Of a stretch of 64,000 nucleotides of DNA, positions 17,005 to 54,223 are shown piece after piece. The translations under genes and the position numbers were made by a program. The notes beneath the pieces are model-generated. The model had not been told where the DNA came from, did not search any database, and saw only the letters and a list, made by a program, of their open reading frames with translations. Each line of letters opens with the position of its first letter. The stretch's first letter is position 1. Source of the DNA: an uncultured Chloroflexia bacterium. GTDB lineage: Bacteria > Chloroflexota > Anaerolineae > JAAYZQ01. The DNA is taken from contig CAVOXA010000001.1 in NCBI GenBank assembly GCA_963700285.1, forward strand, positions 160,001 to 224,000, given 5' to 3'.

Positions 17005-17033
17005 ATTATATTCAGGGGGTTACTATTTGTCAA
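17005..17033 (-). promoter_or_regulatory. Consensus sigma70 promoter of rpoB
   Basis: Minus strand TTGACA-N17-TATAAT, about 200 nt upstream of the rpoB start. Confidence 0.75.
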
Positions 17034-28402: not shown

Positions 28403-29780
28403 TCAGTGGACGATGCGCATGGGGTATTGGGGCCTGAATTCATCGATGATCACACGCAATGTGCTGGATACCCTGTCTCAGATCTTCCAGGCGGATGTTC
28501 TCGTTGGGCGAGTGCCCCCGCGATCCGGTCCAGCCGACTCCCGCCCCGGCGGCCGGCAGGCCCCAGCGCTGGCAGAGTTCGTACATCGGCCCGGTGCCAG
28601 CCATGAGCGGCTTGACCACCGGCTCGTTGCCGTAGGCACGGCTGCGGCCGAGTCGACCACGGCCTCCACCAGCGGATCGCCGGGGTCGGTGCGGGCCGGA
28701 AACTCGGGGCCTTCGACCTCGATCTCGACGTCGGCAAAGCCTTCGTCGTCCAGGTGGGCGCGCAGTTTGTCCAAGATGTCGTACGGATCCTGGTCGGGCA
28801 CCAGGCGAAAGTCGAGCTTGGCCAACGCTTCCGCGGGCAGCACGGTCTTGACACCGGGACCACCGTAGCCGGTGTGAAAGCCACAGATGTTGCAGGTCGG
28901 CTGGAAGAGGAACTTTTCCTTCAGCGCCTCGCCGCTCAGTCCGAGCACAAACTGGTCCGCGCCAAACTCGGCCAGTTCGCCCGCCTCGTCAAAGTCCCAG
29001 GCGGCGAGCATGGCCCGATCGCGGTCGTCGGGCGGGCGCACGTCGTCGTAGAAGCCGGGGATGCAGGATCCGCTCGTCCGGGCCCTTGAGGCTGTTCAGC
29101 GCCCAGATCAGGCGCCAGGCCGGGCTCTCGACGATGGCCGCGTTGGCCGAGTGCAGGTCACGATTAGCGTCCGCGACACGCAGGTCCACGGCCAGGATGC
29201 CCTTGACCCCCAGCGAGATCTCGCAGCCGGTCCTTGGTGTCCTTGTAGCCCGACTCCCAGATGCAGCCATCGGGCCGCAGCTTGTCGCGATGTTCTCCTC
29301 GGCAAAGCGGCCCAGGTTGGGGCTGCCGATCTCTTCCTCACCCTCGACGACAAAGAGGACGTTGAGGGGCAGCTCGCCGCGCACCGCCAGCCAGGCCTCG
29401 ACCGCCGCCAGCCGGGCGACCAGGTTGCCCTTGTTGTCGGCCACACCCCGGGCGTAGAGGTGCCCGTCGCGGATCTCGGCGGCGAAGGGTGGGCTGTCCC
29501 ACAGATCCAGCGGCTCGGGCGGCTGGACGTCGTAGTGGTTGTAGAACATCAGCGTCTTGGATCCGGCACCCGCAAAAGCGCCCCACTGACGACGGGATAG
29601 CCGGCCTGGGCACCAACTCGACCGCGGCGCCGGCCTGCGGCCAGCGTGCACACGCACCAATTCGGCCATCTCGGCCATGCCCACTCCCTGGGCGGCGATG
29701 CTCGGCTGGCGGCAGAAGGCCTGCAGCCGGGCGATGGTGTCCTCCATGTGGCTCTCGATGTAGGCCAAGACGTCGTCCAT
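28403..29780 (-). CDS. M20 family dipeptidase/deacylase, split by apparent indel errors
   Basis: YNHYDVQP, RGVADNKG, EGEEEIGS, DLHS, KTVLP, DFRLVP. Confidence 0.82.
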
Positions 29781-29855
29781 GAGCCCCTCCCGTGTGTTTG
29801 CGCCCATTGTAATCCAGCTACCAGCAAAAGTCAACGAAAGGCGTATTTCCGAACT

Positions 29856-29928
29856 CCATTCTGCACCCATTTGCACCCCAAATTGCACCCCTGGGACGGT
29901 AGCGCCCTGCGTGAAACTATGGTATACT
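29856..29928 (+). promoter_or_regulatory. Island promoter motif copy 1
   Basis: TGCACCC at 29862, 29872, 29884; TAGCGC at 29900; TATACT at 29923. Confidence 0.75.
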
Positions 29929-30100
29929 GGTTACGATGAAGATACTGTCTGCGGGCACTCTGACCTTCGATGGCCCAGCTAGATGCCAGATTGATGTACG
30001 AAGGCCGGTCAATTCTAGATTCTCTATCAGAACCATCTGCCGGCGCCTTCGGCAGAGCCCTCAACCAGAAAGAACCGAAAGAACACAGGGGAGGAATTCG

Positions 30101-30346
30101 ATGGCTGTCCATCAGGTTGAGAACCGGTCGAAACAGGCGAAAGTGGACACCTCTGTGTGGGACTTGGACAAGATGGCTGGTGAGCTTTGGCAGGATTTCC
30201 AGGGGACGGTAAGCCTGCAAATGATCCGGCAGGTACTCACCAGTGTCTCGTTGAGGTATCAGGAGGCGCGCGTCCAGACCTATGTGCCCATCTTTGTGCG
30301 CCAGCGTGCGGTGGACATCCTGCGCCGGGAGATGGACGAATACTGA
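30101..30346 (+). CDS. Small three-helix-bundle protein (DUF3562 / ArsC N-terminal-like)
   Basis: RBS GGGGAGG; motif YQEARVQTYVPIFVRQRA. Confidence 0.65.
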   Translation: MAVHQVENRSKQAKVDTSVWDLDKMAGELWQDFQGTVSLQMIRQVLTSVSLRYQEARVQTYVPIFVRQRAVDILRREMDEY

Positions 30347-30636
30347 GCGATTGGCACGCAAAGCGCTCGACTATACACAGGAGCTGCGTCAGTGCCGAAC
30401 TGTCGGTCAAGGATCAAGACGACACCGTGTCGGCAGTGGACACGCGCGAATTCGCCCCCAAGAGGAGATGCGTGCTGGCGGGGGCGTGGCCCCGGTCAGT
30501 GGCCGGCTCGATGGCCGGCCAGGAGGGGTTCGCCATCCAGCAGACGCCGACCGCCACGTTGGTTGAGGACTTGGGCGCCAGCGGAGACGACGAGTTGCCG
30601 TCGTTGGCACGCCAGATGGGAGTCTGCCGGGCCTAG
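30347..30636 (+). pseudogene. DUF1269-like gene remnant, copy A
   Basis: RLARKALDYTQEL..VKDQDDTV; no start; nucleotide similarity to 31728-31835. Confidence 0.4.
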
Positions 30637-30693
30637 TTGTCAAGGGAAGATGCGTTGGCATCTTCCCTTCATAGAATACGAGGAGGGATGCTC

Positions 30694-31608
30694 ATGACAA
30701 AACAAACGTGGCGTTCAATGTGGTTGATCTTTGTGGTCGCCGTACTGCTCGCGCTGGCTGCGGGCTGCGGGATGTCCGAGCCGGAACCGACTCCCGGCCC
30801 GGTCGAGGCCGGAGCAACGGCGGTAGGTGCAGTGGAGGAGCTCGTGGCCGCCTATCCGCTTGCCGCTACTGCGTGGGACTTGGACTACTTTGGCCCGCCA
30901 GAACAGCCCTTGCCCATACTCCCGGATACACGGGCGACGGTGATCTATTTCTGGGAGCGCTATGCCGGCTTTGACGGCTGCAACTGGTTTCTGGGCGTCT
31001 ACGAGGCGACCGCCGAGGGCGAACTGCGCAACATGACGCCGGCGCGCACGCTCAATCTGTGTGGGCCTGAGGAACTCTACCAGCAGACGGGGATGTTTGT
31101 CTCGAGTCTGCTGAACGTGACCGAATACCAGCTCGAGGGCGAGCAACTGATCCAGAATACCACGGACGACCAGCGGCTCCTCACCCTCAATCCGGCAAAG
31201 CCCGTGCCGATGCCGGGTACGGAGTGGGGACTCGGGTTCTGGTGGCAGGCAGACCGTGAGCAGTGGGCTCCCGTCGTTCCCACCTCGAGGACGACCATTA
31301 CCTTTGGCGAGGGCGGGGAAGCGTCCGGCTCCGGCGGCTGTAACAACTATACGGTGAGCTATGAAGGGGATCTCCAGGTCGAGAAGGTGATGGAAGCAAC
31401 CGACACCTATGCCGAACTGCCCACGTTAACCTTCGGGCCGGTTGCCACACAAATGGTCGCATGCGCCGAACCTGAAGGCATCATGGACCAGGAGCAGGGC
31501 TACTTCACAGTGCTTACCTCGGTCGCCTACTACTTTAAGCTGGGCGGCATGCTGATGATGCTGGACGCCGAAGGCGCTCCTTTGTTGGTGTTTGGCGCCT
31601 ATAACTGA
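30694..31608 (+). CDS. Lipoprotein with two META (HslJ-like) domains
   Basis: Lipobox LAAGC; GFDGCNWF and GSGGCNNY..T.VAC..MDQE. Confidence 0.8.
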   Translation: MTKQTWRSMWLIFVVAVLLALAAGCGMSEPEPTPGPVEAGATAVGAVEELVAAYPLAATAWDLDYFGPPEQPLPILPDTRATVIYFWERYAGFDGCNWFLGVYEATAEGELRNMTPARTLNLCGPEELYQQTGMFVSSLLNVTEYQLEGEQLIQNTTDDQRLLTLNPAKPVPMPGTEWGLGFWWQADREQWAPVVPTSRTTITFGEGGEASGSGGCNNYTVSYEGDLQVEKVMEATDTYAELPTLTFGPVATQMVACAEPEGIMDQEQGYFTVLTSVAYYFKLGGMLMMLDAEGAPLLVFGAYN

Positions 31609-31727
31609 TCACGGCCATGGGGTACCCTTCGGGCGATGAGCGCGTTTGCCAGGGAGTCCCTTCTTCCTGGCGCGCGTCTCTCGCCGTGCTGTCTCTACCA
31701 GGGGACGGCCAAGGCGGGCGTGGAACC

Positions 31728-31835
31728 AGCGATTGGCGCGCAAAGCGCTGGACCAGGCACAGGATCTGCACCAGCGCGGCACTGTCAAGCTCTTCAACGC
31801 TGCCCTGTTGGTCAAAGACCGGGACGGCACCGTTG
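31728..31835 (+). pseudogene. DUF1269-like gene remnant, copy B
   Basis: RLARKALDQAQDLHQRGTVKLFNAALLVKDRDGTV, ending at promoter motif copy 2. Confidence 0.45.
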
Positions 31836-31905
31836 TTCTACACCCTTTTGCACCCAGAATTGCACCCCCTCGGGGCTATCGCTCCCAGCGCAACCGAGTT
31901 ATCAT
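31836..31905 (+). promoter_or_regulatory. Island promoter motif copy 2
   Basis: TACACCC 31839, TGCACCC 31849 and 31861; TATCGC 31877; TATCAT 31900. Confidence 0.75.
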
Positions 31906-31964
31906 GTGGAGGATGGAGGATCCCGACCGTATGAGCCTGGAAAGACGTAGCCCGAGGTGAACCC

Positions 31965-33230
31965 ATGTTTGGTGTCAATTCCGAGGTTGGCCAACTGCGC
32001 AAGGTGATCGTGCACCGTCCGGGCCTTGAACTCAAGCGTCTGACGCCATCGAATCACGATGACCTGCTGTTCGACGATGTGTTATGGGTCGAACGCGCCC
32101 AATGGGAGCATGATCAGTTCGTCAAGGTGATGCGCGAGCGTGGGATCGAGGTATACGACCACCAGGAACTGCTGGCCGAAGCCCTGGCTGCATCTGAGGA
32201 GGCCCGCAAAAAGGTCATCGATCTGGTTGCCTCAGAGTATACGGTCGGCTGGTCGATCGTGGATGAGGTCCGAGATGTCCTATGGACCCTGAGACCGGGC
32301 GCGCTGGCCAGGCACCTGGTCGGCGGGTTGACCGTCGGCGAGTTGGAGATCTTGGGCTTTGATCTGGCAAGATTCAGGCAGGTCTCCCTGGCTGTGGCTG
32401 CGCTGGATGATCCGGGCTTTTTTGTGCTGCCTCCGGCGCCGAACACACTCTTTCAACGAGACCCTTCGTGCTGGATCTATAACGGCGTCACGGTCAACCC
32501 GATGTACTGGCCGGCCCGCCGCCGGGAAGCGCTGAATATGCTCGCCATCTACCGCTACCACCCCATGTTCAGGGAAGCTGACTTTGAGTTCTGGTACCCG
32601 GAGCAGGGCGATGACGGCCGATTCAACGTCCATGATTTTGGGCGGGCCTCGCTCGAAGGCGGCGATGTAATGCCCATCGGCAATGGTACGGTGCTCATCG
32701 GCATGAGCGAGCGTACCCAGGGGCGCATGATCGAACAGGTGGCCAGGGCGCTCTTTGAGAAGGGCGCCGCCGAACGGGTGATCGCCGCTGTGATGACCAA
32801 GGATCGCGCCCACATGCACCTGGACACCGTCTTTACCCTGCTCGACCGCGACATCGCGACCGCCTTTCCCAGCGTGGTCAACAATATCCGGGCCATCAGC
32901 CTGCGTCCAGGCAAGAAGCCGGGAGACTTTTGCGTTACGGAAGAAGAGAGCTTCCTTTCGGCGGTGGCCGATGCGCTCCAGGTCAAAAAGCTTACCATCG
33001 TCGAGACGGGTGGTGATGAGTACCAGATGCAGCGCGAGCAGTGGGATGACGCCAACAACACCGTCGCCTTGGAGCCGGGTGTGGTCGTGTCCTACGAGCG
33101 CAACACCTACACCATAACCAAGATGCGCCAGGCCGGCGTTAAAGTGATCGCCATTGCCGGATTCGAGCTGGGTAAGGGGCGCGGCGGCGGGCACTGCATG
33201 ACCTGTCCCATACTGCGTGATGGGATTTGA
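31965..33230 (+). CDS. arcA: Arginine deiminase 1
   Basis: [45 protein letters not shown]. Confidence 0.95.
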
Positions 33231-33533
33231 GGGGACATGCCAGGAAGGTTGGGAGCGGCCTTGCGGCGGAGGGCGGTCTCCTTCTCTGAGAGCGACCGGC
33301 CCAGTGACCGACGGGGTGCAGCAGCACGAGCACCGCCGGAAGCCAGGCAGCCGGCTCAGGCACGGCCATTTTCACCGGCACGCTGCCCGACAGAATCCAA
33401 GAGCGTGGCCGGGTCCATCAACGGAATCGTACCCTATGCGCCACGCAGGGCGTAACGCGGATGGTTTCCAGCAGGCAGATGGCTCGTGTGGAAACCACGG
33501 AACAAAAGTCGAATTAGTGACAAGGGAGGCACC

Positions 33534-34340
33534 ATGGCAAAGAAAAAGAACAAAGAGAAGGACAAGAACAAGATAGAGCGCAAGGAGTTCGAAAAAGAAC
33601 TGGAAAAGTTCCAGGTCGAGCTGGTCAAGATGCAGGAATGGGTCAAGGTCAGTGGGGCCAAAATCTGCGTGATCTTTGAAGGGCGCGATACCGCCGGCAA
33701 GGGCGGAGTCATCAAGCGCATCACCGAGCGGGTCAGCCCGCGCGTCTTCCGTGTGGTCGCTTTGTCCGCGCCGACAGAACGGGAGAAATCGCAGATGTAC
33801 TTCCAACGCTACATGCCCCATCTGCCGGCCGCCGGCGAAGTAGTGCTCTTTGACCGTAGCTGGTACAACCGGGCCGGCGTCGAACGGGTGATGGGCTTCG
33901 CCACCGAGGAGCAGGTCGAGACCTTCCTCAGGTACGTCCCAGCCGTCGAACAGGCGATCATCGGCTCGGGCATCATCCTGATCAAGTACTGGCTGGAAGT
34001 TGACATGGATGAGCAGGCCAAGCGATTCAAAGAGCGCAACGTGGACTATCGCAAGATCTGGAAGCTCAGCCCAATGGACCTGGAAGCCCAGCACCGGTGG
34101 TACGACTATTCTCGGGCGCGTGACGCCATGTTCGCGGCGACGGACACCCCGGAAAGCCCCTGGTATGTGGTGCCCTCCAACGACCAGCGCCGGGCGCGAT
34201 TGAACTGCATCGCGCACTTCTTGAGCCTGATCCCGTATGAAGAGGTGCCGCGCACACCGATCGAGTTCCCGGAGCGCCAGGCGAGGGGGGACTATGTGGA
34301 ACCCGATTATCCCTACCACTACGTCCCAGAGAAGTATTGA
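33534..34340 (+). CDS. ppk2: Polyphosphate kinase 2 (single domain)
   Basis: FEGRDTAGKGG, FDRSWYNRAGVERVMGF, WKLSPMD. Confidence 0.95.
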   Translation: MAKKKNKEKDKNKIERKEFEKELEKFQVELVKMQEWVKVSGAKICVIFEGRDTAGKGGVIKRITERVSPRVFRVVALSAPTEREKSQMYFQRYMPHLPAAGEVVLFDRSWYNRAGVERVMGFATEEQVETFLRYVPAVEQAIIGSGIILIKYWLEVDMDEQAKRFKERNVDYRKIWKLSPMDLEAQHRWYDYSRARDAMFAATDTPESPWYVVPSNDQRRARLNCIAHFLSLIPYEEVPRTPIEFPERQARGDYVEPDYPYHYVPEKY

Positions 34341-34352
34341 CAGGAGGAAAAG

Positions 34353-37158
<2,806 letters not shown>

Positions 37159-37180
37159 ATCAGATCTAGAGGAGACAGAA

Positions 37181-37981
37181 ATGACAGAAGAAACCTGGAA
37201 TGAAGAAGAGGAATTGGCCTTGGATCTTGGGGTTGCCGCCGAAATCACGGCTATGGACGGCCTGGACGATCTGGCCGATGCCGCGGACATGATGGCCGCT
37301 GCCGAGGACGCTGCCACGGTGGCGGCCGTCGCCGAAGCGGCCGCCGTCGAGGATCTCACCCGGGCGGTGGATGCCGAGATCGTGGCCGTACGGCTGGCGC
37401 AGTTGAGCGAAGTAGTGGCCGATGCGGGCATCGTGGACGTGGCCCAGGGGGCGGCGATGCTGGCCGCCTCCGACGACATCCAGGCCATCAGCGCCGCAGT
37501 GGGGCTCATGAGCGCCGAGGACCTGGAGACCGGCATGGAGGTGGCCAGGACGGCCGGCGAGCTGTGGGCCGTGAGCGACGTGGTCGACCTGCTGGAGATG
37601 CCGGTGCTGGCCGCCTTCCTGGAGTCACGCGGCGAGCGGCTGCAGACTGTGGCCGTGGACATGATCCTGCGAGCGGCGGGCACGCGGGCGCTGTCGCGGG
37701 TGCTGGCTGCAGAGGGCGATGCGGTGGCCGACCTGGGCGCCGAGGAGGTGGTCGAAGGCATGGTGCGCGCCGCAGCCTCGGAGGCCATGGCCGAACGGAG
37801 CGAAGAGCTGGCCGTCGCCGGCGTCATGCTGGCGGACCGGGGCATGGCCGAGGCGGAAGTGGCCGGATTGGCAGCCGACGTTGCCGCGGAGCTGGCCCAG
37901 GACAGCCTCGCCACAGCAGCCGTGGGCGGCGCCGAGCTGGGCGCCGCAGATGTGATGGACGCCGCTGCCAAAGAACGCTAA
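37181..37981 (+). CDS. Ala/Asp/Glu-rich hypothetical protein
   Basis: RBS GAGGAG; GC3-rich codon use; repetitive acidic helical composition. Confidence 0.75.
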   Translation: MTEETWNEEEELALDLGVAAEITAMDGLDDLADAADMMAAAEDAATVAAVAEAAAVEDLTRAVDAEIVAVRLAQLSEVVADAGIVDVAQGAAMLAASDDIQAISAAVGLMSAEDLETGMEVARTAGELWAVSDVVDLLEMPVLAAFLESRGERLQTVAVDMILRAAGTRALSRVLAAEGDAVADLGAEEVVEGMVRAAASEAMAERSEELAVAGVMLADRGMAEAEVAGLAADVAAELAQDSLATAAVGGAELGAADVMDAAAKER

Positions 37982-38007
37982 GAAGCATCAAGATAGCAGA
38001 TCTGAGG

Positions 38008-38042
38008 GTGGCTGGCGCCGCCATGATTGGCGCGCCAGCCAC
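38008..38042 (+). terminator. Hairpin after the Ala-rich gene
   Basis: GTGGCTGGCGC...GCGCCAGCCAC; no U-tract. Confidence 0.4.
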
Positions 38043-38277
38043 TACTGATACTACAACGAATGGAGAAATCAACGAATTGTCCTGCACTGCGGCCCTTCGT
38101 TTCTTTCTAAATTCGGTGTAGTATCCCAAGTCAACCACTTACAGATTCCCTCTGCCGATCCCCGGCTCCCCTTCGAACTAGACGGCGCTTCTACCGCTCG
38201 TTTGCGGCAGCCGAAGGCCCTCGTTGAACCCTCGTTCAAACGGCTTTGTCACCCTTGCCGTACTTATTCTCCCCCAG

Positions 38278-38306
38278 TTGCTTTTTGGGCCAAACTCGTG
38301 TAAAAT
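38278..38306 (+). promoter_or_regulatory. Sigma70 promoter of the MalT-like regulator
   Basis: TTGCTT-N17-TAAAAT. Confidence 0.5.
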
Positions 38307-38359
38307 CTCGGGCAGGGTTTTGCTCCAACTGTAAGTCAAGGAACTCTGCAGGTATAGCT

Positions 38360-41143
38360 GTGACGGCATCGGACACCGAGATACCTACAATCGAACCCAT
38401 AATCATCCTAAAGGCCAAGCTAAACCGGCCCAGCGTAACGCGCGAGCTACTTGTCCGTCCGCGCCTGCTGGATCTGCTCAACAGCGGCCTCCACCGCCGG
38501 CTGACCGTGGTCTCTGCTCCGGCTGGCTTTGGCAAGACGACCCTCGTCAGCTCGTGGCTCGACGGCATGGCCGCAACCAATGAGGGGGATCCTGCATCCC
38601 TGCCTGCGGTGTGGCTGTCGCTGGACGAACACGACAGCGACCTGGCCATCTTTCTGTCCTACTTGATTGCCGCCCTCCGCCAACCCTTCCCCAGCGCGGC
38701 TTCAGAGACCCTGGCGCTCTTGCAGGCGCCGCAGCAACCGCCCACGGGAATGCTCTTCACTACGCTCAACAACGAGATAGAGGCCCTCCCCAGGGAGTTT
38801 GTGCTGGTGCTGGACGACTACCATCTCCTGAGCGGTCAGGATGTCCATGACTTCACCGATAGTCTGGTGCGCTATTGCCCGCGCCCCCTGCATCTGGTGT
38901 TGATTTCGCGCGTCGATCCTCCACTTCCACTGGTGAGCCTGCAAGCCAGGGCCAAGATCAGCATGATACGCACAGCAGACTTGAGGTTCAATAGCGAGGA
39001 GATAGCCACATACCTTGATCGGGCGCTCGAAATACCGCTCGGCCAGCAGGACCGTGCCCTGTTGGGGCAGCGAACCGGGGGGTGGATCGCCGCCCTACGG
39101 CTGGCCACGCTGTCGCTGCGCAGTACCATCGATGTCGAAGGCGTTCCGCACATTCTGGCGCGCACTGGAAGGAGCATTTCCGACTATTTGCAGGATGAGA
39201 TTCTTGAGCAGCAGGTACCCGCAATCCAGACCTTCCTGCTCAAAAGCTCCATCCTGGAACCTTTCTGTCCTTCGCTGTGCGAAGCGGTCGTCGGGCCGAG
39301 CGACCCGGCATGGAGCGTTCACGCATGCGTCGATTGGCTCGAACGCGCAGACCTCTTGGTTTCCTACCAGGATGAGCGCAGGACATGGTATCGCTATCAC
39401 GCGCTGTTGCGTGACTTTCTCCGGGAGAGACTGCGAACCAGACTCGGGGAAGAAGTGGCGGCCGGCTTGCACCACAAGGCTGCGACCTGGTTCGCACAAG
39501 AAGGCATGCTGCACGAAGCCGTGCGGCACGCGCTGGAGGGCAGGAATCACGACCTGGCTGCCTCACTCATCGAAGAAAGGCTGAGCGACGAAATCAGCCA
39601 TGAGGACCAGGCCAGGCTGGAACACTGGCTGGCCGTACTGCCGGAAGAGATTGTCGAGCGCCGGCCCTCGCTCCTGATGTTGAAGGCGTGGGCTTTGGAA
39701 CACTCATGGCAACTCGGCAGACAGTCGAAGGTGGTGTCTCAAGTGGAAGCGCTGATAGAGGAGGACGGCGGAGCAGCTTTATCGCCGGAGGAGGTGCGCC
39801 TCCTGCGCGGGCAAGTCCTGGCACTCCAAGGCCAGTACGCGTACCTTAGCAACGAAGCGGCCCGCTGCGTGGCCTGTTGCGAAGAGGCGCTGGCACTCCT
39901 GCCAACCTCCTGGACATACCCGCGCGCTGGCGCCATGCTCTTCTGGGGCATGGGTATGGGAGCCATGGGTCAGGACCAGGCAGCCGAGCGCGTGCTGCTC
40001 GACGAGTACGAGTCTCTGGACGACAAGCTGACCGGCTATGCACTCCGTATCCTGGTGGCTCAGTGCTTCAACTACTTCAACACCGGCCACCTCGAGCTGA
40101 CCCGTCAAACCGCCCAGGTGCTGCTCCAACAGGCTATCCGCGGCGGGTTGGTAGTTATCCGAGGGTGGGCCCACATGTTATTGGGCATCGTGTCCTATCA
40201 GTGGAACGATCTGGATCGAGCCGGTTCGCACTTGGCAGACATCGTCGGCCAGCGCTACCTGGGCCAAGCCCTCACCGCGTACCATGGCATGGCATGCCTG
40301 GCGTTGGTCCATCAGGCCCGTGGCGAGAGCGCCGAGGCCTGGCGGCTGGTGGAACTCCTCAGTGGCTTTCAGGTGGAGCAGAGGGGGTATGAACAGGACG
40401 ACACCCGCTCCCTGCGCGCCAGGCTGATGCTCGCCCAGGGCGATCGGGAAGGGGCGTTCCGCTGGGCGGATGTATTCACCGCTGCAGTGCCAGATGGACC
40501 GCTGTGGTGGGTAGAGGTGCCGCACATCACCAGGGCACGCATCCTGTTGGCGCGGAATCGTGCGGACGACGTGCGTTTGGCGCTGCAGATCCTGGCTGAG
40601 CTCCTCGAGATTGCCGAACGAACCCATAATACGCGTGCCAAAATCACCATCTTGGCACTGCGTGCGCTGGCGCTGGACGCCCAAGGGCAGACTGAGGACG
40701 CCTTTCTTGCGCTGCGAGAGGCTGTCGACTTGGCGCGACCCGGTGGCTTCCTTCGGGTCTTTGTCGACCTGGGCCCGCCTATGGAGGAGCTGCTGGGCCA
40801 GCTTGCCGGACAAGGCTCTGCCGCAGAGCCCGTGCGTCGAATTCTGGCTGCCTTCCCGGGCGACACACCGGCGGTGACCGGCGATATACAAGCGCCACCC
40901 CGGCAGAGCGACGGTTCGGCATCCAGCATTCCGGGTCTCATCGAACCCTTGACCCCCCGCGAACTGGAGGTCCTGGCGCTGCTGCGTGAGCCCATGTCGC
41001 CCCAGGAGATCGCTCGCCAGCTCGACATCTCTTATTTGACCGTGAAACGCCATTCGATCAACCTTTACGGGAAGCTCGGCGTCAATGCGCGCTGGGACGC
41101 AATAAACAGGGCCATCGAGCTAAAGATCCTGCCTCCGCGCTAG
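38360..41143 (+). CDS. MalT-like ATP-dependent LuxR-family activator (STAND ATPase-TPR-HTH)
   Basis: KLNRP..RPRL, SAPAGFGKTT, WLSLDEHD, LVLDDYH, DLRF, GW, WYRYHAL; C-terminal EPLTPRELEVL..IARQL.IS..TVKRH..NLYGKLGV. Confidence 0.92.
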   Translation: MTASDTEIPTIEPIIILKAKLNRPSVTRELLVRPRLLDLLNSGLHRRLTVVSAPAGFGKTTLVSSWLDGMAATNEGDPASLPAVWLSLDEHDSDLAIFLSYLIAALRQPFPSAASETLALLQAPQQPPTGMLFTTLNNEIEALPREFVLVLDDYHLLSGQDVHDFTDSLVRYCPRPLHLVLISRVDPPLPLVSLQARAKISMIRTADLRFNSEEIATYLDRALEIPLGQQDRALLGQRTGGWIAALRLATLSLRSTIDVEGVPHILARTGRSISDYLQDEILEQQVPAIQTFLLKSSILEPFCPSLCEAVVGPSDPAWSVHACVDWLERADLLVSYQDERRTWYRYHALLRDFLRERLRTRLGEEVAAGLHHKAATWFAQEGMLHEAVRHALEGRNHDLAASLIEERLSDEISHEDQARLEHWLAVLPEEIVERRPSLLMLKAWALEHSWQLGRQSKVVSQVEALIEEDGGAALSPEEVRLLRGQVLALQGQYAYLSNEAARCVACCEEALALLPTSWTYPRAGAMLFWGMGMGAMGQDQAAERVLLDEYESLDDKLTGYALRILVAQCFNYFNTGHLELTRQTAQVLLQQAIRGGLVVIRGWAHMLLGIVSYQWNDLDRAGSHLADIVGQRYLGQALTAYHGMACLALVHQARGESAEAWRLVELLSGFQVEQRGYEQDDTRSLRARLMLAQGDREGAFRWADVFTAAVPDGPLWWVEVPHITRARILLARNRADDVRLALQILAELLEIAERTHNTRAKITILALRALALDAQGQTEDAFLALREAVDLARPGGFLRVFVDLGPPMEELLGQLAGQGSAAEPVRRILAAFPGDTPAVTGDIQAPPRQSDGSASSIPGLIEPLTPRELEVLALLREPMSPQEIARQLDISYLTVKRHSINLYGKLGVNARWDAINRAIELKILPPR

Positions 41144-41196
41144 CCTCACTGCACCTTTCTGCGGCCCACAGGCAGCCCCCGGGTCGCAGCGAAATA

Positions 41197-41269
41197 CCAT
41201 TCTACACCCTTTTGCACCCCAAATTGCACCTTCTCGATGGTATCGCCCTGCGCGCGACCAAGATATACT
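41197..41269 (+). promoter_or_regulatory. Island promoter motif copy 3
   Basis: TACACCC 41203, TGCACCC 41213, TGCACCT 41225; TATCGC 41241; TATACT 41264. Confidence 0.75.
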
Positions 41270-41308: not shown

Positions 41309-41365
41309 GGTGTGCTGACCGATGAAGAGTTCGGGGCTGCCAAGCAACAAATGCTGGCGGGCTGA
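41309..41365 (+). pseudogene. SHOCT-domain remnant
   Basis: GVLTDEEFGAAKQQMLAG* with no suitable start. Confidence 0.5.
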
Positions 41366-42069: not shown

Positions 42070-43557
42070 ATGTCAGAAGAGAAAAAGGGTTTCAGGTTCC
42101 CAACCGCCTACACCATCCTGTTCCTCCTGATCATCATCGTGGTCATTGCCACCTGGGTGGTTCCAGCCGGGCAGTACGAGCGGAACGAAGATGGGGAGCC
42201 GATCCCGGGCACCTACCACCAGGTGGAGTCCAACCCGCAGAAGATCATTGCCGATGGCCTGATGGCGCCCATCAACGGGATGTACGGCCTCCAGGGGGAG
42301 GACGGCAGCGTCAGCGTCTACAACGCTGGCGACCTCTACGGAGCCATCGACGTGGCCCTCTTTGTCCTGGTTATCGGCGGCTTTTTGGCCATCACCATGG
42401 CTACCGGCGCCATTGACGCCGGCATCGGCAAGATCACCGTCGCGCTGAAGGGCAAAGAAAAGTGGATGATCGCCATCCTGATGGCTGTTTTTGCCACCGG
42501 CGGCACCACATACGGCATGGCCGAGGAGACACTGGCCTTCTATGGCCTGATCATCGCGGTCATGATCGCGGCCGGCTATGATGCCGTGGTGGGCGTGGCC
42601 ACTGTCATGCTGGGCGCCGGCATCGGCACCCTGGCCTCAACGGTAAACCCCTTTGCCACCGGTGTGGCCTCGGCCTTTGCCGGCATATCGGTCGCAGATG
42701 GCCTGGTGTCGAGGCTGTTCATTCTCATCGTTGGTACCATCATCGGCATCATCTTTGTCACCCGTTACGCTGAAAAGGTGCGCAAGGATCCCTCCAAGTC
42801 GCTCGTCTATGACAAAAAGGAGGAGAACGAGAAGCACTTTTTGAAGAGCATGGGCACTGAGGCGATGCCCGAGTTTACGGGCCGGCGCAAGGTGGCATTG
42901 GGTCTCTTTGGCCTGGCCTTCCTGGTTATGATCTTTGGCGTCATCCCCTGGAATGACCTGGGGATCCCCCTCCCGCAGTTGAATTGGTGGTTCGGCGAAT
43001 TCGCGGCCATCTTTTTGGGTTTTGCCATCGTCATCGGCTACGTAGGCAAGGTTGGCGGCGAGGCGAAAATCTCCGAGATCTTTATCAACGGCGCCCGCGA
43101 TATGCTGGGTGTGGCCCTGATCATCGGCGTCGCCCGCGGCGTGAGCGTGATCATGAACAACGGCCTGATCGTCGACACGGTGCTGTCCTGGGCCGAAGCG
43201 GCTCTATCGAACGCAGGTGGCGTGGTATTTATCAACTTTACCCACCTGCTCTACCTGCCCCTCGGCTTTCTGATCCCCTCCTCGTCTGGCCTGGCCACGG
43301 TGACGATGCCCATCATGTCGCCCCTGGCGGATTTTGCCTCCGTAGATCGCAGCCTGGTCGTCACCGCCTTCCAGTCTGCCAGCGGTTTGCTCAATCTGGT
43401 CAATCCCACCTTTGCGGTGGTGATGGGCGGCCTGGCGCTGGGCCGGGTGGGCTATGACAAGTGGCTGCGCTTTACCCTGCCGCTGTTGATCATCCTTTTG
43501 ATCGTATACGCCGTCGTTTTGAGCATCGGCGTATTCCTGCCGGGTCAGATTTTCTAG
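42070..43557 (+). CDS. YfcC/ArcD-type basic amino acid antiporter
   Basis: FPTAYTILF, TWVVPAGQY, GTTYGMAEE, IPSSSG..MPI; many TMs; upstream of arcB. Confidence 0.85.
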   Translation: MSEEKKGFRFPTAYTILFLLIIIVVIATWVVPAGQYERNEDGEPIPGTYHQVESNPQKIIADGLMAPINGMYGLQGEDGSVSVYNAGDLYGAIDVALFVLVIGGFLAITMATGAIDAGIGKITVALKGKEKWMIAILMAVFATGGTTYGMAEETLAFYGLIIAVMIAAGYDAVVGVATVMLGAGIGTLASTVNPFATGVASAFAGISVADGLVSRLFILIVGTIIGIIFVTRYAEKVRKDPSKSLVYDKKEENEKHFLKSMGTEAMPEFTGRRKVALGLFGLAFLVMIFGVIPWNDLGIPLPQLNWWFGEFAAIFLGFAIVIGYVGKVGGEAKISEIFINGARDMLGVALIIGVARGVSVIMNNGLIVDTVLSWAEAALSNAGGVVFINFTHLLYLPLGFLIPSSSGLATVTMPIMSPLADFASVDRSLVVTAFQSASGLLNLVNPTFAVVMGGLALGRVGYDKWLRFTLPLLIILLIVYAVVLSIGVFLPGQIF

Positions 43558-43738
43558 CCAGGTACTCAACTTTGGGAGGAGGGCGTGTATGCTTCGAAGC
43601 CCACCGGAGTGACGATGGACCCTTCGACTGCGCTCCCCTCGGCAGCCCGGGGCAGGCAGGGCATGCGATGGACGAAACACGCAACACGAATGACAAAGGC
43701 TCATAGACCATTTTTTGACATTGAAAGGGAGGTTTGAA

Positions 43739-44740
43739 ATGGCATTCAATCTGCGCAACCGGAGTTTCCTGAAACTGCTGGACTTTACGCCCGAGGAGAT
43801 CAAGTTCCTCCTCAAGCTGTCGGCGGACCTCAAGGCGGCCAAGTACGGCGGCTACGAGGTGCCAACCTTGACGGGCAAGAACATTGCCCTCATCTTTGAA
43901 AAGTCGTCGACCCGCACCCGAACCTCTTTCGAGGTGGCGGCCTACGACCAGGGCGCCAACGTGACCTACCTGGGGCCGGGGGGCTCGCACATCGGCCACA
44001 AAGAGACGATGAAGGATACGGCCCGGGTGCTGGGCAGAACCTACGATGGCATCGAGTACCGGGGCTTTGCCCAGAAAACCGTCGAGACCCTGGCCGAGTA
44101 TGCCGGCGTGCCGGTGTGGAACGGCCTGACCGACGAGTTCCACCCCACCCAGATCCTGGCCGACGTGCTGACCATGACCGAACATACCTACAAGAACCTG
44201 CCCGAGATTGCCTACTGTTTCCTGGGCGACGCACGCAACAATATGGGCAACAGCCTGATGGTAGGCGGCTGCAAGCTGGGCATGGATGTGCGCTTGTGCG
44301 GCCCCAAGCACCTGTGGCCGGCGGAAGAACTCGTCGCCCAGTGCCGCGAGATTGCGGCCGAAACCGGCGCGCGGCTGACCCTGGCCGACGACGTGGCCGA
44401 GGCCGTCAAGGGCGCCGACTATCTCTACACCGACGTGTGGGTCTCCATGGGCGAGCCCGATTCCGTCTGGGAAGAGCGGGTCAAACTGCTCAAGCCCTAC
44501 CAGGTCAACGCCAAGGCCATGGAGCTAACCGGCAATCCCGACGCCAAGTTTATGCACTGCCTGCCGGCCTTCCACAACACCGAGACCGAGGTTGGCAAAG
44601 AGATGTACGAAAAGTTCGGGCTCGAGGGCATGGAGGTCACCGAAGAGGTCTTTGAATCCGCGGCCTCCATCGTCTTTGACGAGGCCGAAAACCGGATGCA
44701 CACCATCAAAGCCATCATGGTCGCTACGCTAGGAGACTAG
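43739..44740 (+). CDS. arcB: Ornithine carbamoyltransferase (catabolic context)
   Basis: [30 protein letters not shown]. Confidence 0.93.
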
Positions 44741-44743
44741 CGG

Positions 44744-45109
44744 ATGATCAAGATCCTTCCTCAATCCTCACAGTCGTGCATTGGTGTGCTGGTGAGCGGC
44801 AGCATGACATCAGAAGATTACAAAGCATTGCTGCCCCTCCTGGACAAGGCCATCGCCGCATCTGGCAGGGTGAACCTGCTGGTCATGATGCGGGACTTTG
44901 AGGGCTGGGCGGGGCTGGAGCCGCTCACAACTGATTTCGAGCTTGGCGCAAACCAGTACCGGCAGGTAGAAAAGGCTGCTTTTGTCAGCAAACAGAAGTG
45001 GCTCGAGTGGGCGGTTTGGATCATGGACCCCGTTACCCGCCGCACCCACCAACGTTTTTTCAGCCCTGCCCAGCTTGAGGAAGCCTGGAAGTGGATCGAG
45101 GAAGAGTAG
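44744..45109 (+). CDS. SpoIIAA-like (STAS/SEC14) protein
   Basis: [22 protein letters not shown]...LEEAWKWI. Confidence 0.75.
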
Positions 45110-45123
45110 GAAGGAGAATGCTC

Positions 45124-46035
45124 ATGCGTGTCGTAGTTGCGCTGGGAGGCAATGCCCTGCTCAAGCGGGGAGAACCGATGACAGCCGATGTGCAGCGGGC
45201 CAATGTCCAAGTGGCCGCCCGGGCCCTGGCGCCCGTGGCCACCGAACACCAGCTTGTCCTCTCACACGGCAACGGGCCCCAGGTGGGCCTCCTGGCCTTG
45301 CAAGGGGCGGCCTTCAAAGAGGTGGAAGCCTACCCGCTGGATGTACTGGGCGCCCAGACCGAGGGCATGATCGGCTACATGATCGAGCAAGAGCTGGGCA
45401 ACCTCCTGCCCTTCGAGGTGCCCTTTGCCACCATTCTGACCATGGTCGAGGTGGATGCGGAGGACCCGGCCTTCAAAGACCCTACCAAGTTCGTCGGGCC
45501 GGTCTACGAGGAAGGGGAGGCCAAGAGGCTGGCCGCTGAGAAGGGCTGGGTCGTCAAGCCAGACGGCAAGATGTGGCGCCGGGTGGTGCCCTCTCCGCTG
45601 CCCAAACGGATCTTTGAGCTGCGGCCCATCAAGTGGCTGCTGGAAAAGGGGACCGTCGTGGTCTGCGCCGGGGGCGGCGGCATTCCGGTCATGTACAAGA
45701 AGGGCGCTGATCGGGTCCTGGTCGGGGTCGAGGCCGTCATCGACAAGGACCGGGCCACAGAGCTGCTGGCCCGCGAACTGGAGGCCGATATGTACATTAT
45801 GGCCACCGACGTGGACGGCGTCTATGTCGACTGGGGCACGCCGCAGGCGCGGCGCATCCACCGCGCCACGCCCGCGGAGATGGATTCCTACGAGTTCGCC
45901 GCGGGTTCGATGGGGCCCAAGGTCGAAGCGGCCTGCACCTTTGTGCGCGAGACTGGCAAACTGGCCGCCATCGGTTCGCTAGCCGACATCGAGGCCATCG
46001 TGAAGGGTGAGGCGGGAACGATTGTGCAGCCATAA
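45124..46035 (+). CDS. arcC: Carbamate kinase
   Basis: [43 protein letters not shown]. Confidence 0.95.
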
Positions 46036-46133
46036 AGCCTGGCCAAGGATGGTGCGCCAGAATACTGGCGGCGCATAACACGCTGCGTCACAAGACCTTT
46101 CGTCCTTGGTCTCCAATTGAAAGGAGCCTGAGA

Positions 46134-47366
46134 ATGGCAAACGAATTTGGAGTACACTCAGAAGTAGGGAAACTACGCAAAGTCATCGTCCATCGCCCGG
46201 GGCTGGAGATGCGGCGTTTGACGCCGAGCAACTGCCAGGAGCTCTTGTTCGACGACGTGATCTGGGCGCGCAAGGCGCGAGGGGAACACGATGCCTTTGT
46301 GGACCTGATGCGGGCGGAATTCGGCGTCGACGTCATGCGCGTCCACGAACTGCTCCAGGGCGTCGTGGACGACCCCGAGGGCCGGGCCTATATCCTGGAC
46401 CGCAAGCTGGTGCCGAACGAGGTAGGACCGGGCGGAGCGGTCGAGCTGCGGGCCTGGATGGACGAGATGGACTCGGCCAAGCTGGTCGCCCACCTCATCG
46501 GCGGCGTGACCGTGGCCGAACTGCCCGAGGATTTTCGCAGACTGGCCGAGAAGGCTTACACCGGCACGGAATTCGTGCTGCCGCCGCTGCCCAACCAGCT
46601 CTTCACCCGCGACAGCTCGTGCTGGATCTACAACGGGGTGACGGTCAATCCCATGTTCTGGCCCGCCCGCCGCAAAGAGACGCTGCACCTGACGGCCATC
46701 TACAAGTACCACCCCAGCTTCAAGGGCGGCGATTTCACCATCTGGTGGGGTGACCCTGATGTGGACCACGGCAGCGCCAGCCTCGAGGGCGGCGATGTGA
46801 TGCCCATCGGCAAGGGCGTGGTCCTCATCGGCATGGGCGAGCGGACCACCTACCAGGCCGTCGGCCAGGTGGCCCAGCAGTTGTTCAAGCACAACGGGGC
46901 AGAGCGCGTCATCGCGGCCAAGATGCCGCCCGACCGCGCTAGCATGCACCTGGACACCATCTTTACCTTCTGCGACCGGGACCTGGTGACAATCTATGAG
47001 CCGGTGGTCAACAACATCACGCCTATCAGCTATCGGCCCGGCGACGCCGAGGGCGCACTGGATGTGACCGTCGAGGAGAAGGGCTGGCTGGACGTGGTGC
47101 AAGAGGCGCTGGGTCTCAAGGAACTGCGCGTCGTGCCCACCGGCGGTGACGCCTTTGAGCAGGAACGCGAGCAGTGGGACGACGGCAACAATGTGGTCGC
47201 GCTGCAGCCCGGCCTGGTGGTGGCCTACAATCGCAACGAGTGGACCAATGCCCGGCTGCGCAGGGCCGGCATCACCGTGATGGAGATCGACGGTTCTGAG
47301 CTGGGACGCGGCCGTGGCGGCGGTCACTGCATGACCTGCCCCGTGTTGCGCGATCCGGTCTTCTAG
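46134..47366 (+). CDS. arcA: Arginine deiminase 2
   Basis: [43 protein letters not shown]. Confidence 0.95.
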   Translation: MANEFGVHSEVGKLRKVIVHRPGLEMRRLTPSNCQELLFDDVIWARKARGEHDAFVDLMRAEFGVDVMRVHELLQGVVDDPEGRAYILDRKLVPNEVGPGGAVELRAWMDEMDSAKLVAHLIGGVTVAELPEDFRRLAEKAYTGTEFVLPPLPNQLFTRDSSCWIYNGVTVNPMFWPARRKETLHLTAIYKYHPSFKGGDFTIWWGDPDVDHGSASLEGGDVMPIGKGVVLIGMGERTTYQAVGQVAQQLFKHNGAERVIAAKMPPDRASMHLDTIFTFCDRDLVTIYEPVVNNITPISYRPGDAEGALDVTVEEKGWLDVVQEALGLKELRVVPTGGDAFEQEREQWDDGNNVVALQPGLVVAYNRNEWTNARLRRAGITVMEIDGSELGRGRGGGHCMTCPVLRDPVF

Positions 47367-47508
47367 CGTGGCTGGAGAAGGACTGGCAGTGCAAGCAACC
47401 GAGGTTGCCGACTGCCAGTCCTATTCTGAGGTTAGCACACTTTCGCCCATCCCAAGTACGCGAGGCCTTGGCGTTTCGCGAGAAACGCTGAAGGTAAGGA
47501 GGAGAGAG

Positions 47509-49059
47509 ATGTCTGAAGAGAAAGAACGTACAGTCAGGTCACCATCCTTCTTCGATGCGTTGATTCCCATTATCGCCCTGGTCATCCTGCTGGTACTCGC
47601 CATCGGTCTATACGGAGACGAAGGCATCTCCGGACCGATCCAGGTGGCATTGATCCTGAGCATGTTGGTGGCGGGGCTGGTTGGCCTCAAGAACGGCCAC
47701 AGCTGGGCGGACATGGGCAAAGCCGCCGTGGAGGGGATCTCGACCGCCATGGGGGCTATCTTTATCCTGCTGGCGGTGGGCGCGCTGGTTGGCACCTGGA
47801 GCATGTCGGGCACGGTGGTCACTATCGTGCACTTGGGGGTCCAGTTCTTGAGCGCGAGTTGGTACTACCTGGCTGCGGCCTTGATCTGTGCCGTATTGGC
47901 GCTCAGCATCGGCAGCGCCTGGACGGTGGCCGGTACCCTGGGAGTGGGCCTCATCGGCATCGCCGAAGCGCTTGGCGTGTCGACAGAGATCACGGCCGGA
48001 GCCGTCATTTCGGGCGCATACTTTGGCGACAAGATGTCGCCCCTCTCAGAGACAACCAACCTGGCGCCAGCCGTGGCCGGCACCGATCTATATACCCATA
48101 TCAAGGGCATGATCTGGACCACGCTGCCCTCGATCCTGCTCGCCCTGGTCATCTTTGGCGTTCTTGGCTACACCGGGGAGTACACGGTTCCCCTGGACCT
48201 TACCGAGGTGCTGAAAGCGATCGAGAGCGTCTTCTATGTAGGCTTCTGGACGTTGATTCCCCTGCTTCTGGTTCTGGTCCTGTCGCTGTTAAGATTTCCC
48301 GCTTTTCCGACCATCATGCTTGGCGCTCTGGTGGGCGGGCTCACGGCCATAGTCCTGCAGCCGGACGTGGTCCTGGCCTTTGTCAATGACCCCAGTCTCA
48401 GTACACCAGTCGCAATGCTCAAGGGCATCTGGTCGGCGATGGCCACGGGCTTTGAACTGGACACCGGGTACGAAGGCTTGAATACCTTGCTGAACCGGGG
48501 CGGAATGTCCAGCATGCTGGAGACGGTGTGGCTGATCCTCAGCGCCATGGCCTTTGGCGGCGTGATGGAGTACACGGGGTTGCTCGCCCGCCTGATCCAG
48601 CCGGTCGTAGAATGGGCCAAAGGAGACAGGCGACTTGTCGCGGCCACAGGTCTGACGTCCATCGGCACAAACATAATAGCCGGCGACCAGTACATGGCCA
48701 TCGTGCTGCCGGGTAGGATGTATCGAGAGATCTACCAGGAAAGAGGCATCGCCCCGGAGACACTCTCGCGCGAGATAGAGGATACCGGCACCATCACCTC
48801 GCCGTTAGTCCCGTGGAACAGTTGCGGGGCTTACATGTCCGCGACGTTGGGCATCGCCACCATGGCCTACCTGCCTTTCTGTTTCTTTAACCTGATCAAC
48901 GTGCTGGTCTCGTTCCTCTATGCCATCCTGGGCTTCCAGATCAAGCACGTAGAGCCGGAGCAAGTGCTTGAAGAACCACCGGAAGAAGCCACCTGGCGGG
49001 CCATCGGTGGACGAAGGGTGGAGCCCACCGAGCACGAGGCGGCAGTCAGGGGAGGTTGA
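47509..49059 (+). CDS. nhaC: NhaC-family antiporter
   Basis: GSAWTVAGTLG, SGAYFGDKMSPLSETTNL, RGGMSSM, EDTGT..PLVPWN. Confidence 0.85.
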   Translation: MSEEKERTVRSPSFFDALIPIIALVILLVLAIGLYGDEGISGPIQVALILSMLVAGLVGLKNGHSWADMGKAAVEGISTAMGAIFILLAVGALVGTWSMSGTVVTIVHLGVQFLSASWYYLAAALICAVLALSIGSAWTVAGTLGVGLIGIAEALGVSTEITAGAVISGAYFGDKMSPLSETTNLAPAVAGTDLYTHIKGMIWTTLPSILLALVIFGVLGYTGEYTVPLDLTEVLKAIESVFYVGFWTLIPLLLVLVLSLLRFPAFPTIMLGALVGGLTAIVLQPDVVLAFVNDPSLSTPVAMLKGIWSAMATGFELDTGYEGLNTLLNRGGMSSMLETVWLILSAMAFGGVMEYTGLLARLIQPVVEWAKGDRRLVAATGLTSIGTNIIAGDQYMAIVLPGRMYREIYQERGIAPETLSREIEDTGTITSPLVPWNSCGAYMSATLGIATMAYLPFCFFNLINVLVSFLYAILGFQIKHVEPEQVLEEPPEEATWRAIGGRRVEPTEHEAAVRGG

Positions 49060-53500: not shown

Positions 53501-54223
53501 GCCTGATCGAGTGCGAGCTGGGCCTGGCCGGACGTTTGACCTGGTCATCGCCCGCACCGGCTACACCGGCGAGGACATCGGCTACGAGATCTTTGTCCAC
53601 CCCGACCGGGCGGTGGCCTTCTGGGAGACGCTGCTGGAGGCGGGCGAGCCCTTTGGCCTGCAGCCCTGCGGCCTGGCCTGCCGCGACTCGACGCGCACCG
53701 AGGCCGGCCTGCCCCTCTACGGCCACGAGCTGGCCGGCCCGTTCGACATCTCGCCGGCCGGGCGCCGGGTTCGGCTCCTACGTCAAGCTGCACAAGCCCT
53801 ACTTTATCGGCCGCGCGGCGCTACCTCGAGCGGCGAAAAGACGCGCGACGATGGAGATCGCCCGCTTCCGCATGAACGAGCAAGGGCGTGCGCATGCCCA
53901 AGACCGGCGACCCGGTGGTCAACCGCAAGGGCCGGGCCATCGGCTGGGTGACCAGCGCCGCCGTGGACGTGGATGGACGGATCCTGGGCCTGGCCTACAT
54001 CGAGAGCCGCTACCACCGCGAGGGCGACGAGATTGGCATCTTTAGCCTGCCGGCGCGCCCGGTCGTGGAGAAGGAGGACAAGGCCGACCTGGAGCCCGGC
54101 GACACGATCCAGCTGCCCGACGCGGCCACGATCCTGACGCGCTTCCCCGACGACGACGAGCGCTCCCACTGGCGTGGCGAAAAGGTGGAATCCGCACCCA
54201 GATTCCTGCCGGCGGGTGAATAG
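50565..54223 (+). CDS. glyA: Serine hydroxymethyltransferase fused to tandem GcvT (aminomethyltransferase) domains; many apparent indels
   Basis: [41 protein letters not shown]; then FDLS..IDD..LRTEAGL; then [43 protein letters not shown]. Confidence 0.8.

Follow-up and report, generated by a model that had tools for sequence, protein, structure and literature searches.

Which protein reads three similarly built intergenic elements, and which genes they serve, is the question raised by a stretch of 64,000 nucleotides (hereafter the window) of contig CAVOXA010000001.1 from an uncultured Chloroflexia bacterium. Each element, here called a cassette, carries three short direct repeats (boxes) ahead of a promoter-like site, and the gene of P0001, a MalT-like regulator of the STAND type, lies between the second and the third of them. 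We put at about 0.85 the probability that the cassettes are activator-dependent sigma-70 promoters which, as predicted from sequence, are bound by an oligomer of P0001 and switch on the genes of this island. The direct observations behind this answer are the anatomy of the cassettes, their restriction to genomes with the regulator, the intact STAND-TPR-LuxR architecture of that regulator and the co-variation of the boxes with its recognition helix.

The three cassettes had been proposed in a first-pass annotation of the window, and they were found again at the same coordinates with the same box spacing, offsets and spacer length (Table 1). The boxes read T(A/G)CACC and are spaced by 10 and then 12 nt in each cassette, and, counted from the start of box 3, a hexamer TA(T/G)CGC begins at 16 nt and the -10 hexamer at 39 nt, with a spacer of 17 nt between both hexamers in all three. 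Pairwise identity is 47-58 of 73 positions inside the cassettes and 16-23 of 60 in the flanks; by part, it is 17-18 of 18 in the boxes and 7-11 of 17 in the spacer. Since identity drops to background beyond the 73 nt and peaks in the boxes, the cassette is a conserved element and not a duplicated segment. A sequence G-x-Y-G-S-T-A sits 5 nt after box 3 in all the window cassettes and overlaps the TA(T/G)CGC hexamer. Because this subgroup shows G-x-Y-G-S-T-A where its relatives have an inverted box, the first bases of the hexamer would be the end of a putative, degenerate inverted box; its placement at the -35 position was given correctly before, and it would be better read as the end of that proximal box together with a weak -35 position. 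Other promoter-like sites between 9500 and 49300 use TTGACN and are near TTGACA (e.g. at 17033, 18462, 29834 and 49251), as had been said of the housekeeping promoters.

The window's own assembly (G000; 7.05 Mb in 22 contigs) contains the exact three-box pattern three times, against 2743 single boxes. A scan by position weight matrix (PWM), which the first-pass annotation had proposed, makes only the window cassettes stand out: they score 53.1-55.6 bits and the next site in the genome 17.6 bits. When each cassette was omitted from the matrix in turn, it scored 42.3-45.4 bits vs 18.6-20.0 bits for other sites. These three copies, the only ones in the genome, all lie within 11.4 kb of the P0001 gene, and one of them stands directly behind it, with its first box 60 nt past the stop codon. 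No further regulon members were found in G000 above 17.6 bits with the three-site PWM or 10.8 bits with an eight-site PWM, and the PWM scan gave no cassette upstream of the P0001 gene. A site TTGCTT-17-TAAAAT with TG before the -10, at 38278-38306 of the window, was read by eye as a candidate promoter of the P0001 gene itself.

P0001 is an intact protein. When aligned with E. coli MalT, its NOD shows the motifs APAGFGKTT, LVLDDYH, ISR, GWIAAL and WYRYHALL, and Walker A, Walker B, the sensor-I arginine, the GW motif and the histidine of the winged-helix domain were all found. The TPR_MalT and GerE domains score 147.9 and 48.4 bits, both over the cut-off and in one intact frame. The recognition helix of its LuxR-type helix-turn-helix (HTH) is S891-YLTVK-R897-HSINL (short form SYLTVKRH). 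Identity with E. coli MalT is 28% over 935 columns. P0001 was rejected as MalT proper: the equivalog NCBIfam PRK04841 gives 367.7 bits at a cut-off of 537, the box is T(A/G)CACC and not GGA(T/G)GA, and the cassettes precede arc, ppk2, META and other genes but no maltodextrin genes.

The same cassette was found in other genomes that carry the regulator. Among 40 relatives, one genome of the same family (G019) bears a P0001 ortholog, with 68% identity; its gene is inverted with respect to its neighbours, and upstream of it, on the other strand, are two matching cassettes. G019 has five exact cassettes and one with three mismatches on four contigs, plus one further degenerate copy. A metagenome search with three HTHs gave 80 loci, the closest of which (L182; ortholog 68%) carries three full cassettes within 6 kb, two of them on the opposite strand. 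Over these three organisms 11 full copies were found, ten with a -10 at 17 nt and all 11 with G-x-Y-G-S-T-A at the proximal position. Targets common to all three organisms are an ACT-like small gene with yfcC, PRC/DUF1269 (DUF1269 only as remnants in the window) and META; Ala-rich, SHOCT and RDD genes are also among the targets in G019. Neither P0001 ortholog, nor cassette, nor real arcA match was found in G001 (same genus, best match 41%, 90% complete) or in G009 (94% complete). In G019 one cassette, at L178 451-646, directly follows a short piece of a malT-like TPR region.

Wider searches bear on a doubt left by the first-pass annotation, that the motif may be scattered independently of MalT-like genes. 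For the full cassette this was seen neither in GTDB, nor in 400 genomes of the class, nor in viral contigs. The fuller pattern gave only one weak match with two mismatches in the 400 class genomes, which lack the ortholog, and the search in viral contigs gave none. The bare three-box pattern gave 62 loci across GTDB; four are Anaerolineae records with the cassette letters of G019, which were counted once with it and gave the class assigned to the window. The other 58 loci contain 59 matches, none of which shows TAKCG, the G-x-x-G-x-TA site or TAnnnT at the set distance, and no malT-like match was found in any of these loci; the bare pattern was hence rejected as a diagnostic, as 58 of its 62 loci are unrelated. 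The closest HTH in the class genomes, the only one at E<=1e-22 (G408/L181, 66%), has behind it TACATC-4-TGCACC-5-GGTGGT, a -10-like site and a small partner gene, i.e. a two-box version. A cassette thus accompanies the P0001-type HTH in G019 and L182, and in two-box form in G408/L181, which supports the earlier proposal that the boxes are the putative operator of the MalT-like protein. Bare TGCACC arrays were also noted in sets of unrelated genomes (L024/L030/L046/L056/L080; L031/L055/L082; L035/L042/L063/L064), where they often precede an AT-rich tract or an inverted copy; our guess is that they are replication-origin or mobile-element repeats. A sister regulator with the helix SYQTVKRHTVNI (L022, downstream of 6369; L183) has a decayed cassette directly behind its gene and, further on, a second array with a 10-nt period ahead of LURP-one and DUF6325 genes.

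To judge from its sequence, the window cassette is one example of a layout found across the family, and the proposal of a private operator and regulon of P0001 holds with this amendment. All eight TPR-bearing malT-like paralogs of G000 are followed, at about 80-160 nt past the stop codon, by a -10 and a repeat array of their own, each array with a different box; the ninth paralog, which is sensor-less, has no array behind its gene. The family set was assembled from G000 and 82 regions and gave 95 gene ends, of which 88 were kept and seven dropped for a broken HTH or a short flank. An untrained repeat score of at least 11.5 was reached by 41% of the 88 malT-like ends; among random gene ends it was 0.2% of 600, and among control ends containing a -10 it was 2% of 488. 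A self-trained model placed an array promoter behind 68 of the 88 malT-like genes vs 3 of 500 controls. In the common layout two or three direct boxes spaced by 11-13 nt are followed after 3-5 nt by an inverted box and then by a TGACA-like -35 and TATACT, and the inverted proximal box is clear in many paralogs. Multi-promoter regulons are a minority, since extra copies of a paralog's own cassette lie nearby in only 7 of 66 regions (vs 1 of 396 cross controls). The G000 paralog at C14:81156 has three more copies of its own cassette, at C14:70161, C21:160 and C18:8, each heading a small gene of the P0002 family (see below): a second private regulon.

The boxes change together with the recognition helix. 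Over 68 loci the cassette similarity rises with helix identity, with a partial r of 0.17 when the protein body and the other HTH residues are allowed for (p 0.001 by label permutation, which ignores kinship). Base 2 of the box was compared in 134 dereplicated MalT-like rows, of which 55 had a called box, the trait being picked after inspection of the data: where the residue after T-x-K/R is Arg, a purine is found in 14 of 14, and where it is Ser or Thr, C is found in 19 of 22 (Fisher 1.8e-7). Within the 22-row clade of the window, boxes of the T(A/G)CA type go with Arg. Two Ser rows, which have different sisters (support 86 and 90), show TCCACC and a perfect inverted GGTGGA; in two rows with Lys-Gly-Tyr the box is TCCTAC. 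E. coli MalT also fits, with Thr in its helix and TCATCC/TCCTCC boxes. We infer that Arg897 would select the purine at box position 2 and so would separate this regulon from those of the other paralogs. Since the box changes together with one helix residue, the targets of P0001 relatives would be predictable from sequence.

Taken by analogy with E. coli MalT, an inducer would bind the TPR sensor of P0001, ADP would be exchanged for ATP, and the protein would then multimerise. Its HTH domains would occupy the three direct boxes, with centres near -70, -60 and -48 from the assumed start, and a fourth HTH would contact the degenerate inverted box at the edge of the -35. P0001 would thereby bring RNA polymerase to a promoter whose -10 is good and whose -35 is poor, and would switch on the arginine deiminase, polyphosphate kinase and membrane-protein genes of the island.

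The cassettes could also be activator promoters read by another factor, namely a sensor-less NOD-HTH protein, an unrelated regulator or an alternative sigma factor, which we hold to be very improbable. G000 encodes at C6:34617-35967 an intact MalT-like protein without the TPR sensor, with the NOD joined to the HTH and the helix APGTVKRHSNNI. This HTH (C6:35770) has the sole other K-R-H helix among the 24 parsed of 40 HTH matches in G000 and could cross-read the boxes, but the gene lies on another contig with no cassette behind it, its helix differs at 5 of 12 positions, and the cassette accompanies the P0001 ortholog in three organisms. The boxes of the window are not known to resemble the palindromes of ArgR, Crp/Fnr or DosR. 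Equally improbable is that the cassettes are duplicated constitutive promoters or that P0001 is a repressor, the co-variation coming only from inheritance beside the HTH-coding end. Linkage of this kind would also let the cassette similarity follow the rest of the HTH (rho 0.36) more closely than the helix (rho 0.27), as was found; the cassette does stand directly behind the HTH in most paralogs, and its linkers are fairly conserved too. Against it, matching cassettes in G019 and L182 are found elsewhere than at the HTH end, whether on the opposite strand or on other contigs, the boxes are far better conserved than spacer or flanks, the -35 of the cassettes is poor whereas other promoters are near consensus, and both studied homologs are activators. 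Least probable of these explanations is that the repeats are mobile-element ends, iterons or recombination sites which shuffle the island genes. The bare arrays of the 58 unrelated GTDB loci would fit it, as would the difference between genomes in the genes behind the cassettes and the broken DUF1269 gene that ends at cassette 2, but those loci lack the downstream features of the cassette and any malT-like match, viral contigs gave no match, and each copy points towards a gene downstream of it. As a side effect, genes may still be shuffled at the cassettes.

Besides the C6 helix and the two rho values, the case for P0001 as the activator is weakened by several observations. One of the 11 full copies has no -10, the proximal inverted box fits GGTGYA poorly, and the 7.6-kb contig with the arcA1 ortholog of G019 is free of cassettes; the gene may belong to a longer operon across the contig break. 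The base rule was chosen post hoc with a box in only 55 of 134 rows; on the tree it gave five independent pairs, 4.7 the same way and 0 opposite (p 0.0625), and the PWM-based trait gave p 0.625 on tree pairs and so no support. A strict two-box test was passed by only 12 of 28 KRH loci. Seven RNA runs contained 5-15% of the sampled words, and in the four examined all contigs have a depth of 2-4 and some span the cassette itself, so transcript start and level are unreadable from them and these data are uninformative.

We further lean, at slightly better than even odds, to a joint reading in which the Anaerolineae and their kin expanded MalT-like STAND activators into a self-addressed module of regulator, own operator-promoter and ferredoxin-fold partner gene, one helix residue sets box base 2 in a simple code that separates the paralogs, and the family of an 83-aa protein, P0002, is a dedicated feedback or ligand-sensing partner. 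P0002 belongs to an unnamed family whose members follow many malT-like genes; a small gene of this type lies within 600 nt behind 40 of the 95 malT-like gene ends. Its predicted fold is ferredoxin-like (ACT/RAM-type) with beta-alpha-beta-beta-alpha-beta topology, at a predicted local distance difference test (pLDDT) value of 83.7. In structure comparison (VIA) the best Z was 7.7, a level common to many ferredoxin-like folds and pointing to no specific family. With the model, Foldseek found nothing at E<=0.001, the searches by PDB sequence profile and in Pfam were negative, and the ESM Atlas matches were to hypothetical Chloroflexota clusters only. A complex prediction of P0002 with P0001 (alignment residues 1-830) returned no answer (score 0.00). 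That P0002 is the partner of P0001 is our guess from gene position, and the finding points to this unnamed family of small proteins as a likely partner in the regulon. Operators are known for few MalT-like regulators, while here each paralog seems to carry its own next door; if the reading is true, operator and regulon would be readable from sequence for hundreds of uncharacterised STAND regulators, and the paralog-private cassettes would give dozens of natural protein-DNA pairs plus a testable one-residue swap.

With operon limits taken from gene order, the three-helix and META genes would be driven by cassette 1; arcA1, ppk2, the ATPase and the Ala-rich gene by cassette 2; and the P0002 gene, yfcC, arcB, arcC, arcA2 and nhaC by cassette 3. 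Of the small proteins noted earlier after cassette 3, the 83-aa gene is genuine and the other is a SHOCT remnant. By spacer sequence, the three cassettes of the window match the three of L182 but head other genes, and therefore the island has been reshuffled behind its promoters. The genes present suggest that energy is gained from arginine and polyphosphate. Many genes of the window are frameshifted, among them those of the M20 peptidase (28989-29888), the P-type ATPase (34353-37158) and a long gene (50776-54045); they are likely assembly errors, with decay as the alternative.

Table 1. Cassettes, regulator and neighbouring features of the island, in coordinates of the window
Feature	Position	Strand	Details and basis
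Cassette 1	29856..29928	+	Direct boxes 29862, 29872, 29884; degenerate inverted box 29895-29901 GACGGTA; TAGCGC 29900-29905; -10 TATACT 29923-29928; sequence, PWM
Cassette 2	31836..31905	+	Direct boxes 31839, 31849, 31861; inverted box 31872-31878 GGGGCTA; TATCGC 31877-31882; -10 TATCAT 31900-31905; sequence, PWM
Cassette 3	41197..41269	+	Direct boxes 41203, 41213, 41225; inverted box 41236-41242 GATGGTA; TATCGC 41241-41246; -10 TATACT 41264-41269; sequence, PWM
P0001, MalT-like STAND regulator	38360..41143	+	927 aa, intact; NOD, TPR_MalT sensor, LuxR HTH
Consensus sigma-70-like site TTGACT-17-TACAAT	29806..29834	-	Directed at the M20 peptidase gene, divergent from cassette 1
Three-helix-bundle protein, MSMEG_6209 N-terminal type	30101..30346	+	NF046112 31.6 bits, cut-off 25; first gene after cassette 1
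Decayed PRC-barrel/DUF1269 remnant	30339..30582	+	tblastn; behind cassette 1
META-domain protein, signal-like N terminus	30694..31608	+	Domain search
Second PRC/DUF1269 remnant	31724..31834	+	tblastn; ends where cassette 2 starts
arcA1, arginine deiminase	31965..33230	+	Profile match; first gene after cassette 2
ppk2, polyphosphate kinase 2	33534..34340	+	Profile match
P-type ATPase, several frames	34353..37158	+	Named by reading, DKTGTLT motif only
Ala-rich protein	37181..37981	+	No Pfam or NCBIfam match; homolog directly behind a cassette in G019
SHOCT-domain remnant	41309..41365	+	Weak, E 0.0066; behind cassette 3
P0002, 83 aa	41724..41975	+	Behind cassette 3
YfcC-like antiporter, arcB, SpoIIAA-like, arcC, arcA2, NhaC/ArcD-like transporter	42070..49059	+	arcB and arcC by reading translations

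Known systems were compared through the available excerpts of the papers cited here. For E. coli MalT these describe a protein that binds its inducer, exchanges its nucleotide, oligomerises, occupies several sites cooperatively and recruits polymerase, with the four-site malPp800 as the model promoter (PMC10427625, PMC4381067). The malPp sequence of E. coli K-12 has TCATCC and TCCTCC 13 nt apart and then an inverted GGATGA. The likeness lies in the NOD-TPR-LuxR architecture and in direct boxes placed at intervals of roughly one helical turn (10 and 12 nt in the window, 13 nt in malPp). In difference from E. coli, the P0001 helix has Arg for Thr and the window box a purine for C, no maltose genes lie behind the cassettes, and no equivalents of MalK, MalY or Aes were identified. 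The SARP-LAL regulators of Streptomyces, so far as the excerpt of PMC5930380 describes them, are likewise STAND-type activators with phased direct (heptameric) repeats upstream of the promoter, and differ in that they carry a SARP domain; the DNA-binding domain here is a C-terminal LuxR HTH.

The MalT island of Actinoplanes sp. SE50/110 is, on the excerpted account of it, the closest known system. Deletion and overexpression of its malT (ACSP50_3915) show activation of a large genomic region that is regulated by maltose, and the motif TCATCC-5-GGATGA lies at the -35 before 17 start sites, its 3' end 34.4 nt from the start (PMC7567727). That island holds arginine deiminase, ornithine carbamoyltransferase (OTC), carbamate kinase, amino-acid permeases, a dipeptidase, SHOCT and DUF1269; in relatives ppk2 is in the island and gene order is shuffled between genomes (PMC7567727). 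Matched by family names, both islands share a MalT-like gene within a cluster of promoters with its own motif, the arginine deiminase pathway, ppk2, SHOCT and DUF1269. An inverted proximal box at the -35, as in the known MalT layout of E. coli malPp and Actinoplanes, may be present in degenerate form in the window cassettes. Paralogs with the helix SLPTVKSHTRNI (L113, L116; Ser-helix) carry the exact Actinoplanes motif TCATCC-5-GGATGA.

The differences, again as far as the excerpts go, are that the window box is T(A/G)CACC and not TCATCC, that there are three promoters here vs 17 there, and that only the palindrome is reported there, with three direct boxes and a degenerate inverted one here. 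The phylum is another one, eight TPR-bearing paralogs are found in one genome here, and the maltose link is shown only there. As the Actinoplanes island resembles it, the kind of system is already known; in the literature searched, mostly without subscription journals, nothing was found on the T(A/G)CACC box, the private, family-wide cassettes, the residue-base rule or the small partner protein. The likeness of both islands suggests a recurring energy or stress regulon, and the present locus extends the Actinoplanes-type MalT island, with its arginine deiminase, ppk2, SHOCT and DUF1269 genes, to a second phylum with a different box.

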